A stretch of DNA of 64,000 nt, from assembly GCF_018977255.1 (NCBI RefSeq), contig NW_024704742.1, positions 121,088,001 to 121,152,000 on the forward strand, in the 5' to 3' direction. Every line of letters begins with the position of its first letter. The stretch's first letter is position 1. The translations under genes and the position numbers were made by a program. The notes under the pieces were generated by a model. That model saw nothing but the letters and a program-made list of their open reading frames with translations, was not told the origin of the DNA and ran no database searches. Positions 28,794 through 34,700 of the stretch are shown in pieces. The DNA comes from Callorhinchus milii. Its lineage: Eukaryota.

Positions 28794-31700
28794 CTGTAAA
28801 ACAAAACAAGATACAATTTAAATCTTATGCTGAAGGACAAGCAAAATATTAGAATGTTAATTTGATGTTCAAGGAATTTATACATACCATGAAAAAGAAG
28901 ACCATAGAGAAATGTAATATTAATGACTGAAATTGAAGTAAATATTGTACATTTGTATAATAACTAGTATTGCTAAACATTCTTAAATGAATGTACACTT
29001 AAGAATCAAGGTTCAACTGAAGTAAAATAGTTCAGTATTGTAAATTGAAACTTCAGTAAATAAATCAAAATCGGAACTCTCTAATTCTCCACAATAAGGC
29101 TAAATGGTGCAAAGTGATACAGTAACACATAAAGGTTTTGAGCCTCGAGGATGATAAATGACTTTACATACACATTATGTTACCTGTGAATAAAATACAT
29201 CTTTCAGTTAGACACCTGAGGGTTGACATTGTGGTGTGGTTATCAAAGCATCAGGAAATGCAATTTGATGCCAAATTAAATTATAGGACAAACTTGATGG
29301 AATCAAGCCAGCAAAAAATGGTAGCTCAGCCAATCAACATGCAGTTCACAGAGCTTGTTGATCTGGTCATTAAGTCACTCAACTAACTGAGCCCTTACAA
29401 AAGGGAAAAAAAAGTGGCAATAGCTTGATCAGAAAAAAATGGAGTGCCTCTGGAAACAACCCTATAATGTCAAGAGCAGGTAGAGTGAGGAATTTCTGTG
29501 CATCCGTGTGCCTTGCCCCCTTACTGAACCATAACACGCCATTCAGTAGGCTAAACATCATTACAAAAGAAGCCAATTTTAAGATAAAACTGGAATTTAC
29601 ATGTTTATGTTTAATCAACATTCTATTTGTGGAGTCCTGTAGCTCAGAGGTTAGAGCACTCGCTTTGCAAGTGAGAGACCTGAGTTCAATTCCAGGCAGA
29701 GGGCGAAACCTTGGGCAAGTTTCCTTACTCCACACACCTAATAATAATCCCTCCAAAAACCAAAAACAATAATAAATTGGTCATTTTCAATCTACGACTG
29801 TTTGTGGGACATTGCTGTGCGCAATTGGCTGCCCCGTTCGCCCACAAATATACAGTCAATTCACTTTACAGTGTGTTCTGTGAAGCGCTTTGGGACGTCC
29901 TCCCGACGTGAAAAGCATCAAATGCAAGGATTATTATTATTATTATTATTTATGTAGCTTGGAAAAAGTCATCTTAAGAATAAACCTTAAAATAATCCTA
30001 TTTTAAAATAGAAGATATTGATAATATCCACAGTATTCAGTTTTATTTGCTTTTTTAAAAAAAGAATCAAGGCCCAATTGTGAAGTAAAATACTGCAAGT
30101 GACAGAAAAACTATATTTTAAACATTACAGTTTTCATCTGATTGTTGGCAGACATTCAGGTACCAATACATTAATTCTGAACCACCACTTCCTATTAACC
30201 ATTCATTACTTAACTACATGCAAGAAAACTAGCATTTCCTGGTAGGAGGTTGCTAAGAATTTCTAAGCAAAAATAATTATAGCACTACTATCCAAACACT
30301 GCAAAAGAATTAATCATTCAAACAGCAAATATACAAGATTAAAAGATCAAATGAAGATATCTTTGTAATTATTGTTAATTAAGCTAGAAGTGAGCCAATT
30401 AACCTCTTTATAAAGAAGCAATATTTTTCTCACATGAACAATTTGGAAAATGGCATCTTGATGAAGCTTGGATTTAACAGCCTGAATTTCAATAAGAGGA
30501 AGAGATGATATACAATCTATGTAAATGCACAATTGTTGGCAACTTAGATTAATGCTCTGAATCCCAGAGGAGCTTCTTGGGAGATGCTTTTAAATGTTTT
30601 TCACTTCGAGAGAATGTTTCAAAACATTATACACCTGACTATCCACCAATACAAGACATTAAAGCGCCATGTAGCTCAGCCAGAGAAACCACCAATGTTA
30701 TGACTGTGTCACTATGTTCATGTGAAAGTTATGAATGAAATCCAATGTTACATCAACTTTGTGACTTGCGATTGCATGAGGCACTGCTGGATCTATATAT
30801 TCACAAAATATGCTTCCTTGGTAGCAGCCTATCTTAGATGATAGCACTAACTACTGTTTTTTTTGTAGACGAATGCAGCAGCCAAATTACACCCAGTGAT
30901 GTCACTTAATCTAATGTTGACAGTTTGTGATGAAGAAAATATTGAAAAACAGTAATGTGATATGCATCTTGGATTACTTTTCCACAATTCCTTAATAAAC
31001 ATAGTTGATCTTTTGTTTATCTCTAGTTAGCTGTACATTCATAGAGTATCTTTTTGTTGCAATGTTTGCGTTTAAAATTGTCTTTTTAATTCTCTTTTCT
31101 TCCCTTCATAGTAAGCTCTGGCTGAGACTAAAGTTCAGCAATATCTTCCAGCAAAGTATAAAGGGCATCTAACAAGACACCACCTTTGTTTGCTTTCTTC
31201 TCTCTTAGGCTGACAGCTCATATTCATCAAGTGCTACTTCCACTGACCCAGGCATGATTGACTACTAATCCTATGTGCAGGTGGTAGGAAGTAAACTCTC
31301 CCTTTCTCTAAGGCATGTAGTCTTTATATTCTCCTCATACTGAACTGTTGCTCTGAGATTTACCTGGACTAGTCAGTCGTTCTAAGATTTTTCTTTCTAA
31401 GGCTTCTCTGCCTTTTCCTAAAATCTCTTGCTTTTTCTTTAGCTCTTTGATTCTGTCTGAATAAGAAATGATTAATTCAGGTTAGGTATGAACAAGAATT
31501 GTTTGCATAGTGGGCTATTGCTATTGTCATTCATGTGTAAAAGTTAGACATCTCCCTAATTGAGTTTGTAGTTTTTATTCCCACTTGAAATGCTGCTTCC
31601 AAAGACAGGAGTCCAGAGATTTAAGAGTGACAGAGAAAGTAGTTGTGCTTTGCAGCAACAGAGCAAATTAGAAAGGTAGAGCGGTATATGCTCAGGTAAG

Positions 31701-34700
31701 AGAAACATATATACACTAAACTTTTTGTGACTGGGTGATAAGTGTTAAAAGGAACAGGAACAAGGAGTCCTGTAGCTCAGTGGTTACAGCACTCACTTCG
31801 CAAGCGAGAGACCTGAGTTCAATTCCAGGCAGAGCAAACCTTGGGCAAGTTTCCTTACTCCACACGCCTAATAATAATCCCTCCAAAACAAAAAACAATA
31901 ATAAATTGGTCACTTTCAATCTACATTGAAAGTGGGACATTGCTGTGCGCAATTGGCTGCCGCGTTCGCCCAAAAATATAGTCAATTCACTTTACAGTGT
32001 GTTCTGTGAAGCGCTTTGGGACGTCCTCCCGACGTGAAAAGCGCTATATCAAATGCAAGGATTATTATTATTATTAGAATGCAGCCTAATGATTAGTAAA
32101 AGAATATAGGATATTTTAGTAAGTCTTTGAAATAGAGGATGAGAGCCAAATATGGAACAGCTTCTTTCTTCAGTATCCAGAAAATAGATAAATTAATTAC
32201 AATAGAATAATAATCATTGCATTTGATATAGCATCTATTGTGTTGAAATTTCTCAAAGCGCTCCACAGGGGTTTCTGTAAGTGCAGTGACAGTGTGGTCA
32301 AATGTGGCATCTAATTTGCACAAAATGTCCCACAAACAACTGTGAAGTAAATGATTAATCTTATCTAGGAATCTGTTGGCTAAGCACCAGAACTCTCTTC
32401 TTTTGAATCATGTCAGGTGATCTTTGATATCCACCTGAACAGGCAGATAGGGACTTCTCATCCAAAGGATAGCAATTCCAACAATACAATGTTTTCCCAG
32501 TTATCAGAAATGGAGTGGTTTTCCTCTTCTCCAGCTATGGTTAAAATGGTAACTGACTCGAAGTCTGACCTCATTCATGAAGAATATCTACTTGGGACAG
32601 GACTAGAACTCTGGAACCATACCCAAACATGCCATGTTGCCTTCAAGAGGAAGGAAATAAATTGTTTCCTGTTAAAAATCAGGGGTAGACTTGTGGAATA
32701 TTTTACTAGTAATGGCCATTGAAAGACTCTAAAAATAAGTTAAATAGGCAACTGGCTGCATTTCTGGAAAGAAAATGCTGAAGGATAAGGTTTGAAGCTT
32801 TTGGGTTGGGACCCATCAAAAAGAGTAGTTTGATTGGATCTAATGGTCTAAAATTTCTTGATTTCCTTCAAAATAATTTGTATTTAAATCTGCATCTCTA
32901 GTTCTTATTTTCTTCCCTTCATAGTATTTACTCCCCATTTTAGTAAGCTTAACAGTACACTATGGCCGAGAGCGGTTTTCTGTTTACCAATCAGTAAAGG
33001 ATACTAAAACAGCAAAATCTTTCCTAACCTTTGTTAGGCAGCTGATGTCCACCGTGTGCTATCCCAGTGACCCAGCTGTGATTGGCATAGACTCAGAAGT
33101 CTAAGTGGTGCAATATATATTCACAGGCTCTCTCTATGGCATAGTGCCCACATATTTTCAACATACTAAAATAAACTAAATTGTTGTTCTGATTTTTACC
33201 TCTACTGTTCAGTCGTTCTAAGATTTTTTGTTCTAAGACTTCTCTGCTTATTCCTAAGATTTCTTGTTCTTTCTTTAGCTCTTTGATTCTGTCTGAATGA
33301 GAAATGATTAACTTGGGTTAACTATGGCTGGAAGGGGTTGTACAGATCTTTTTTATTGTTTTAAGTGAAAAAGCACACATCAGTCGATATTGATAAATGT
33401 ATAACATTTAAATCCCTTAAGTAAGAGCTGGAGAAGTGGCACATAAGAATCCGCATACACTTCTTCCAGAAGTGGAAATTGAAGGAAAAAAGAAATCAAC
33501 TTTTTATGATTTTTTTTCTCTTCCAATTAGACTTGGCCTTGCCTTGGCTCAGTGCTCTAGCAACAACAGTAAACAGTCTGAGGAATCTTTAACTAATCAT
33601 ACAGCAATACGATTCCTTAATTTGCAGTTTTAGTTTATATTTTCTTCCCTTTTCTGGTCTGTATTACTTTCCTTCTAGGTATCCTGAATATTACATTCTC
33701 ACTGAGATTACATTAGTTAGACCGTCCAGACTGTTTGCCAACCAGTAAGGATATTGAGATGGTATCATCTTCGCTGACTTATTTCTCAGTTAAGTTAGAC
33801 AAGCACATGTTCATTGTTAGGTGAGCTGGTCCCATTGACCCAGCCATAATCTGGGCAGATGAGAAATTTAGGTGCAGTAATTAGTATTCTGCTCTCTCTA
33901 TGACACTACTCCCTAAATATGCTCAACATATTGCAACAAACTGAACTGTCACTATGGAATTTACCTTCGCTGGATAGCTGTTCTAACATTTTGCTTCCTT
34001 CTCTGCTTTTTCTGCTTCTTTTTAGCATTCTGATTCTGCCTGTACAAAAAATGGTTAACTTGGGTTACCTCTGAACAGGAAAAGAAAGTGCAGATAATTT
34101 AGTAATCTGTTCTGTCAAAGGAAAAGATCAGGCATATTCATGATGTGAAAATGTAAACTCCATGTGAAGGTTGGAGAGTCTTTGTTGAAGAAGTAATAAA
34201 AGACAGTCTAGCAGAAGCTCAAGGGAGCAGAAAATTTAAGAGATGAACGAAAAAGTAACTGGGAAGGTAAGCAATCCTTAAACAGGGATTTCCTCAATTT
34301 ATCAATCTCTTCTCAATTTTCCAATTAGAGCCTTCAATTCAATGCTGCACATTTCTAAGCACTTAGCAACCAGTAGAGCATTGTGGTCATTTGGTTTCTC
34401 CTCATTTCTTGCAGGGTCATCCCCCCAACGTGAAAGGCACTATATAAATGTACAATTGCATTGTACTGCAGAGAAGCATTCATCCTGTACAAGTTTCAAA
34501 AACTTGCTGACTGGGGGAAAGATCGGATGTAAATTTTAGACATTAATGAACAAAGAAAATAATATCATTAGGTTGGCTTTATCTTAAATCTTGATTCACA
34601 AAAATACAGGTATCAGTACAAATAGCTTCATGCTAAGGGGCACTCTTACCATTCTTCAGCTACTTGTTTGTAAACCTACCTCGTAGTTCTGCTAGAATTT

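Follow-up and report, generated by a model that had tools for sequence, protein, structure and literature searches.

Three tandemly duplicated cassette exons in the last intron of Callorhinchus milii KIF2A lengthen the predicted C-terminal tail

The last intron of the kinesin-13 gene KIF2A of Callorhinchus milii was found to carry three tandemly duplicated in-frame exons, here called A, B and C, for which both inclusion and skipping were observed in RNA. We favor with moderate confidence the reading that a new exon was tripled in the C. milii lineage and gave rise to a regulated cassette isoform, partly constrained, that by analogy with MCAK would alter tail-motor control. The insert of 87 residues was unexpected, since the junction between the penultimate and last exons is uninterrupted in the other groups sampled (sharks, rays, bony fishes and one mammalian protein). 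The locus offers a clear case in which tandem duplication amplified a new exon and the copies met unequal fates, as well as a natural variant for asking whether KIF2A uses an MCAK-type tail-motor switch and how much weight tail geometry carries. Its reach is that of one species, at the level of RNA contigs and predicted models, with automated annotation already in place.

The window, i.e., the whole stretch analyzed, comprises 64,000 nt (contig NW_024704742.1, positions 121,088,001 to 121,152,000). The gene within it showed a 100% match to C. milii KIF2A, 20 exons of which were mapped. The predicted protein P0126 scored above cut-off for both Pfam Kinesin and KIF2A-like_1st; it is KIF2A, a kinesin-13 with a central motor, a KIF2A-type N-terminal domain and a C-terminal EExxS motif. 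On the minus strand, reading frame and RNA junctions placed the penultimate constitutive coding exon at 34680..34815 (136 nt, phase-1 donor) and the coding part of the last exon, including the stop codon, at 28708..28793. The EExxS motif of the last exon (E-E-H-A-S) lies at 28744..28758, as counted from the reading frame. Exons A (33965..34039; 75 nt, 25 residues, basic), B (33200..33292; 93 nt, 31 residues) and C (31364..31456; 93 nt, 31 residues, with a Ser-Pro end) are on the same strand. All three are open in phase 1 and are bounded by an AG acceptor and a G|GTAAA donor, and 7/7 inclusion combinations stay in frame to the normal stop. Both alternative frames of B and C contain stops, and one is open in A. 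B and C are identical at 80/93 nt, ungapped, and A is 18 nt shorter, a deficit split 12+6 by MAFFT, with a different gap placement by another aligner. A sequence-only reading of this DNA had described these blocks, their splice ends and frame, the closure of the other two frames in both 93-nt copies, the 13 indel-free differences and the net loss of 18 nt, and all of this was recovered here.

The similarity is not limited to the exons. The duplicated units, each an exon with intron flanks and with limits set by a profile, span 33638..34287 (A), 32901..33503 (B) and 31071..31705 (C) on the minus strand. Pairwise homology was detected in the downstream 350 nt (z=14-33) and in the upstream 300 nt (z=5-10), and in every pair 0/100 shuffles reached the real score. 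The three-unit profile matched just these units in the window, the next match having E=3.5, in agreement with the earlier description of a unit occurring three times. The three units are thus a tandem exon duplication, with adjacent homologous exons and homologous flanking intron. The B-C spacing is longer (1836 versus 765), partly because a short high-copy repeat (31764..32076, no strand assigned; second copy at 29631-29945) intervenes. The sequence-only reading had asked whether the unit might be a dispersed repeat found elsewhere in the genome. When each unit and peptide B were searched against the same genome, with counts as lower bounds, matches were confined to the last intron of KIF2A, and RNA contig depth was 0-30 over the units versus up to 840,000 over nearby repeat copies; an exonized dispersed repeat was rejected on these grounds. 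A processed retrocopy behind the spliced contig was also rejected, since peptide B matched two genome places, both in this intron (lower-bound search).

A duplication spanning the last intron (donor spacing 715 versus 765), which would have combined the start of the last exon with the end of the penultimate one, was considered as the origin but found no support in the flanks (z from -1.6 to 1.1) or the exons (z<=1.6). No significant similarity was found between A, B or C and the two neighboring KIF2A exons or their flanks (DNA z<=1.6), or between their peptides and KIF2A anywhere along the protein (p=0.24-0.91), and the proposed echo of KIF2A's own sequence in the peptides was therefore not upheld. 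A, B and C had no Pfam match, nor did the motor-loop exon. The copies are without demonstrable descent from a constitutive KIF2A exon and may have an old, eroded origin. A new phase-1 exon would have arisen in the last KIF2A intron along the C. milii lineage and would then have been copied twice together with ~650-750 nt of intron flank, for which homology was shown; the flanks suggest the order of duplication of C versus A/B.

We then turned to RNA, of which 4/14 runs (same organism, RNA status presumed) were examined as assembled contigs, a form that gives no inclusion levels. Contig 9 of run X4 (2230 nt) ran from the penultimate exon through A, B and C into the last exon, with GT-AG ends and zero exon mismatches. 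The four junctions named by the sequence-only reading, 34680>34039, 33965>33292, 33200>31456 and 31364>28793, were all exact in this one contig, which was the sole junction-spanning KIF2A contig among those listed for run X4; no skip contig was listed. The skip junction 34680>28793 was observed, with nothing else there, in runs X1 and X9 from two other studies; run X6 had neither coverage of A, B or C nor a listed junction and was uninformative. Inclusion was thus seen in 1/4 runs and 1/3 studies, in an assembled contig. Given inclusion and skip junctions in RNA, A, B and C are cassette exons, and the claim of alternatively spliced in-frame exons lengthening the KIF2A tail holds. Of the two modes that had been proposed, cassette inclusion stood (included in X4, skipped in X1 and X9), whereas mutual exclusion was rejected, since a single contig carries A, B and C consecutively and RefSeq models carry two or three of them. 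At this contig level, some samples include all three copies jointly and others skip them.

The exons had been called hidden, but automated RefSeq annotation already models them, in two accession series of different age. The C. milii KIF2A models X1-X6 (XP_042190988, XP_042190991, XP_042190992/998, XP_007890326, XP_042191002 and XP_007890327) are automated predictions with A+B+C, or with A+C in model X5, and their exon peptides and order are identical to those in the window; B is singly skipped in two RefSeq models (A+C). These models may be based on the same RNA data as the contig of run X4. A search of mainly non-subscription literature found no description of the C. milii KIF2A insert; what was not found there is the triplication, the selection pattern and the placement relative to EExxS, the exons themselves being already in the automated annotation.

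Among the 158 proteins compared, the insert was carried by eight, all from C. milii (six A+B+C, two A+C). Insert motifs were found in none of those from outside C. milii, which was the sole chimaera recognized in the matches; within this set, the extension is confined to C. milii, as its proposed lineage specificity would have it. Straight reading across the junction without insert was observed in 82/112 non-Callorhinchus matches, and among the remaining 30, those inspected proved to be a truncated model or fragments reading through an intron. A low-power phmmer search with exon C (30 aa) against 1.84 billion representatives gave 0 matches, itself included. When shorter proteins were searched with the tail, 28/3153 candidates matched, and the nine inspected were constitutive-exon matches, mostly intron read-throughs. 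In other cartilaginous fishes, several KIF2A inserts were seen elsewhere in the protein, each in one or two species (16 proteins aligned).

Comparison with the tandem exon duplications described in the available text of Ivanov and Pervouchine 2022 (PMC9013439) and Martinez Gomez et al. 2021 (PMC8373072) showed shared features: neighboring homologous exons, a copied intron flank, and alternative splicing within one gene. Unlike the cases reported there, which are mutually exclusive or substituting, the KIF2A copies are co-included, and they resemble no constitutive exon of their own gene. Moreover, over 90% of the cases in the accessible part of PMC8373072 date to teleost fish, whereas the KIF2A copies were found in C. 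milii alone.

Divergence between the copies showed, statistically and on small numbers, a pattern of purifying selection on B and C, with A diverged and drifting. B-C identity was higher in the exon (80/93) than in the flank (147/249; p=1.4e-6), in line with the earlier observation of more diverged flanks. Non-synonymous B-C differences (8/71) were fewer than flank differences (94/244; p=6e-6), and synonymous ones (5/19) were indistinguishable from those of the flank (p=0.34). The earlier caveat that most B/C substitutions are non-synonymous is weak, since 8/13 changes fall on ~71 non-synonymous sites and 5 on ~19 synonymous sites (dN/dS 0.38), a ratio that was non-significant when tested against the copies' own synonymous sites (p=0.14). 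Exon C was the most constrained relative to its own flank, with C-only changes at 2/75 exon positions versus 45/217 in the flank (p=8e-5). Exon A was the fastest changing: it showed no excess conservation over the flank (p=1.0 and 0.10) and a dN/dS of 0.74-1.0, and A-only changes were enriched in it (17/75 versus 27/217 in the flank, p=0.04). Under neutral decay at flank-like rates, the probability that all three copies remain intact was 6e-5 to 2e-3 (four settings, star tree). Polymorphism gave no signal, with 0/13 variants within exons versus 0.9 expected (p=0.40). The groupings differed, the flanks pairing A with B and the exons pairing B with C.

The exons are also rich in AGAA, with counts of 6, 7 and 6, corresponding to 6.5-8.0 per 100 nt versus 0-4.0 in the other 17 mapped exons (p=0.004, 0.017 and 0.043 against a synonymous-codon null, the copies being non-independent). 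According to the available text of PMC3240583, Tra2beta binds AGAA and its level is up in mouse meiotic cells; multiple exonic AGAA motifs, which characterize Tra2beta-activated exons, are present in A, B and C. The AGAA content hints at germ-line inclusion, and inclusion is probably tissue-regulated, possibly via a Tra2-type activator in germ cells.

Inclusion of all three exons would place 87 residues, probably helical and with a computed net charge of +10, within the tail's last heptad helix, whose signal spans the junction when the exons are skipped (p=0.01) and is interrupted by the insert. The EExxS motif, 13 residues beyond the penultimate exon if all three are skipped, would shift to 100 in the A+B+C form. 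In the accessible parts of Talapatra et al. 2015 (PMC4443670), the C-terminal EExxS of MCAK (KIF2C) binds the motor, docking on the motor dimer, and the MCAK tail reduces affinity for the microtubule lattice (see also PMC6299235). Disabling the MCAK motif did not change bulk depolymerase activity. The motif is common to KIF2A too, and the C. milii last exon retains it just past the insertion point, but the switch was demonstrated on MCAK, not on KIF2A. By analogy, the long isoform would most likely dock its tail on the motor differently and bind the lattice more tightly. A bolder version, which we consider speculative and rather improbable, would make the insert a chimaera splice-controlled basic repeat module that uncouples EExxS from the motor of KIF2A and provides a second tether to microtubules, the number of exons (0, 2 or 3) tuning lattice affinity as for tau exon 10, perhaps in germ cells and jointly with an 84-nt motor-domain exon. 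Tau (MAPT) exon 10 is a functional analogy only, with no sequence relation seen: in the available text of PMC11228892 this cassette adds a repeat and tunes microtubule affinity, but it repeats tau's own constitutive repeats, whereas the KIF2A insert is Pfam-negative and its microtubule-binding role putative.

It is also conceivable, if unlikely, that the exons are spliced and translated but that the insert is a tolerated spacer leaving motor behavior essentially unchanged. Selection would then preserve just the purine-rich splicing enhancers and the frame, the latter because a frameshift or stop would delete the conserved C-terminus. Such a spacer would agree with an exon A conserved no better than its flank, with a B-C dN/dS not significantly under 1, with an AGAA enrichment that could by itself constrain Lys/Glu/Arg codons, and with the scattered KIF2A inserts of the cartilaginous fishes aligned. 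However, non-synonymous B-C sites are conserved far above the flank and synonymous sites are not, which fits constraint on protein better than on RNA, and the X4 listing is without a skip contig. Duplicated pseudo-exons that were leakily spliced in a single permissive sample, with B and C alike through recent gene conversion, would fit inclusion in a single run and the A+B flank versus B+C exon grouping, which conversion could also produce. Yet conversion should even out synonymous sites, which are flank-like within error; AG, GT and frame are intact in all three copies; and the included form is the sole listed junction-spanning KIF2A contig of X4. We judge this explanation very improbable.

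Rather less remote, but still unlikely, is that the insert forms a rigid rod prolonging the tail's dimeric coiled coil. B and C open in the heptad register of the last exon, and A+C makes exactly eight heptads and retains a weak heptad signal (p=0.043). In B and C, Leu occupies positions 6, 13 and 20 and the best-scoring register is that of the last exon's start, but this pattern was not above shuffles. Indeed, neither heptad scores (p=0.17-0.73) nor hydrophobic moments (p=0.34-0.82) of A, B, C, BC and ABC exceeded shuffles, so the coiled-coil check that had been suggested gave no support; moreover, 31 and 87 are indivisible by 7, and the modules are broken by Gly and Ser-Pro. For the full isoform, AlphaFold run on an alignment of 42 rows gave a mean pLDDT of 38, with ~37-55 over the insert and the motor poorly modelled too, and this low-confidence model has a single helix over residues 658-764. 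As a separate observation, the 84-nt motor-domain exon of KIF2A is common to C. milii and a sawshark.

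Twenty KIF2A exons were mapped in the window, spanning 60811 to the last exon at 28793, and the exon at 34680-34815 (minus strand) matched Callorhinchus milii KIF2A at 100%. The three extra exons, A (33965-34039), B (33200-33292) and C (31364-31456), all on the minus strand, lie in the last intron of this gene. As the sequence-only reading had indicated, each is bounded by an AG acceptor and a GTAAA donor and has a length divisible by three, and the frame was open from the penultimate exon to the usual stop in all 7 inclusion combinations. A (near-)identical TAAC/TTAA-containing stretch, possibly a branch point, precedes the acceptor in the three units (~34040-34072, 33293-33325 and 31457-31489), and a second (near-)identical intronic block, CTGGGTCA, lies ~120-145 nt downstream of each donor.

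Splicing was investigated by comparing the window with 4 of 14 listed C. milii sequencing runs, from three studies; all were assembled contigs whose RNA nature is presumed. One 2230-nt contig of run X4 joined the penultimate exon, A, B, C and the last exon, with predicted GT-AG introns and no exon mismatches, and thereby placed the inclusion junctions where they had been predicted. This contig is best explained as spliced RNA, since four introns were exactly removed and a genome search found no retrocopy source. Thus, A, B and C are cassette exons that are included together, and their presence in a single contig refutes the earlier suggestion of mutually exclusive exons. No skip contig (lacking all three) was seen among the X4 contigs listed. 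Runs X1 and X9, from two studies other than that of X4, contained only the direct junction 34680>28793, and X6 contributed no junction of either form. A, B and C are a tandem exon duplication, the class described in PMC9013439 and PMC8373072, here of the co-included type. The likeness of the insert to tau exon 10 (PMC11228892) is a functional analogy only.

For every pair of units, the score of the flank homology was reached by 0 of 100 shuffles. A profile built on the three units matched just those three within the window, genome searches that used the individual units or peptide B as queries gave matches confined to the last KIF2A intron (counts being lower bounds), and contig depth ranged from 0 to 30 over the units and reached as much as 840,000 at a short repeat close by. 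Hence the unit was triplicated locally and is not a dispersed repeat, the alternative that the sequence-only reading had set against its own proposal. The echo of KIF2A's own sequence suggested in that reading was not significant, either in DNA (z<=1.6, flanks unrelated) or in protein (p=0.24-0.91). By default, we infer that the first copy arose by exonisation of purine-rich intron sequence. The short repeat, present at 29631-29945 and 31764-32076 with aligned blocks 91-100% identical, is very abundant in contigs and is probably a SINE. Several LINE-like fragments in both orientations were also observed at 35173-36439 and 37800-41100, with an inverted pair at ~35485-36439.

Exons B and C agreed at 80/93 positions and their downstream flanks at 147/249 (p=1.4e-6). 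Conservation at non-synonymous sites (8/71 changed) greatly exceeded that of the flank (p=6e-6), and synonymous sites (5/19 changed) did not differ from it (p=0.34); the dN/dS of 0.38 was by itself not significant (p=0.14). Copy C was the most distant in the flank, with 45/217 unique changes, yet had only 2/75 in the exon (p=8e-5). Copy A showed the opposite, with 17/75 unique changes in the exon and 27/217 in the flank (p=0.04). These contrasts argue that B and C keep the ancestral sequence and that A is relaxed or changing. Under a neutral decay model, all three copies would be intact with a probability of 6e-5 to 2e-3. Polymorphism in X1 was uninformative (0/13 variants in exons, p=0.40). 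The triplicated exons are real, and B and C are probably functional.

A, B and C are already in automated annotation. The insert they encode (87 residues, or a subset) was found in 8 of the 158 proteins compared, all of them C. milii RefSeq models (A+B+C in six, A+C in two), and was absent from C. milii RefSeq isoforms X7-X10 and the UniRef models examined. The RefSeq models may share the RNA source of run X4 and so do not count as independent evidence; none of the assembled contigs of the four runs showed the A+C form. Outside Callorhinchus, 112 matches were available within the best 120 of 1208; 82 of these, including sharks, rays and teleosts, were continuous over the junction, and none of the 82 carried the insert. 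Queried by itself, the insert matched two sequences, both from C. milii, among 1600 candidates, and no further carriers emerged from a search among shorter proteins or from phmmer with exon C, a search of low power. Since no other chimaera species was identified among the protein matches and the shark comparison is of annotated proteins, "lineage-specific" here means C. milii versus annotated elasmobranch proteins, and the insert is so far limited to this one species. The literature searched contained no published description of a KIF2A exon triplication. In several teleost-like contigs (P0134-P0140), gene callers extend across the last KIF2A intron, as it is only ~90-110 nt long and lacks an in-frame stop.

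In the skip form, a heptad pattern spans the junction (p=0.01). The insert breaks this pattern, itself gives neither a significant heptad signal nor a significant amphipathic one, adds a net charge of +10 and was modeled by AlphaFold as a helix running through it, with low confidence. The end of exon C (31364-31369, minus strand) encodes Ser-Pro and, joined to 28793, creates S-P-x-K in included forms only, which we take to be a CDK-type phosphorylation consensus. The distance from the junction to the C-terminal EExxS motif is 13 residues in the skip form and grows to 69 with A+C and to 100 with A+B+C. In MCAK, this motif, which KIF2A shares, docks on the motor dimer and reduces affinity for the lattice (PMC4443670; PMC6299235), bulk depolymerisation is unchanged without EExxS docking (PMC4443670), and KIF2C oligomerisation is described as controlled by the helical C-terminal region (PMC12153341). 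By analogy, inclusion of A, B and C would alter tail-motor docking, and the added basic charge would raise lattice binding.

AGAA occurred 6.5-8.0 times per 100 nt in A, B and C compared to 0-4.0 in the other 17 exons, exceeding a synonymous-codon null. AGAA is the core motif of Tra2beta, which increases in mouse meiotic cells according to the available part of PMC3240583; germ line inclusion is a plausible guess from motif content.

Other KIF2A inserts were observed. An 84-nt alternative exon in the motor domain (55509-55592, minus strand; 28 aa, basic) is present in RefSeq X1-X3, X5 and X7; its core looks IQ-like to us, and Pfam gave no match. A similar 27-aa insert occupies the same position in KIF2A X1 of the sawshark Pristiophorus japonicus (P0032), and the exon appears older than the chimaera-shark split; it may exceed the tail exons in interest. 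A post-motor alternative exon (42962-43078, minus strand; 117 nt, 39 aa) has conserved counterparts in sharks, rays and teleosts; it was in none of the eight RefSeq tail-insert models, as judged by length and partial alignment. Further cartilaginous-fish inserts in the alignment (P0128/P0129, P0036, P0056/P0057, P0069) include a 51-aa Lys/Glu-rich one ahead of the neck in Heptranchias, a 44-aa one in Heterodontus, an 18-aa one common to Carcharodon and Cetorhinus and a 10-aa one in Mustelus.
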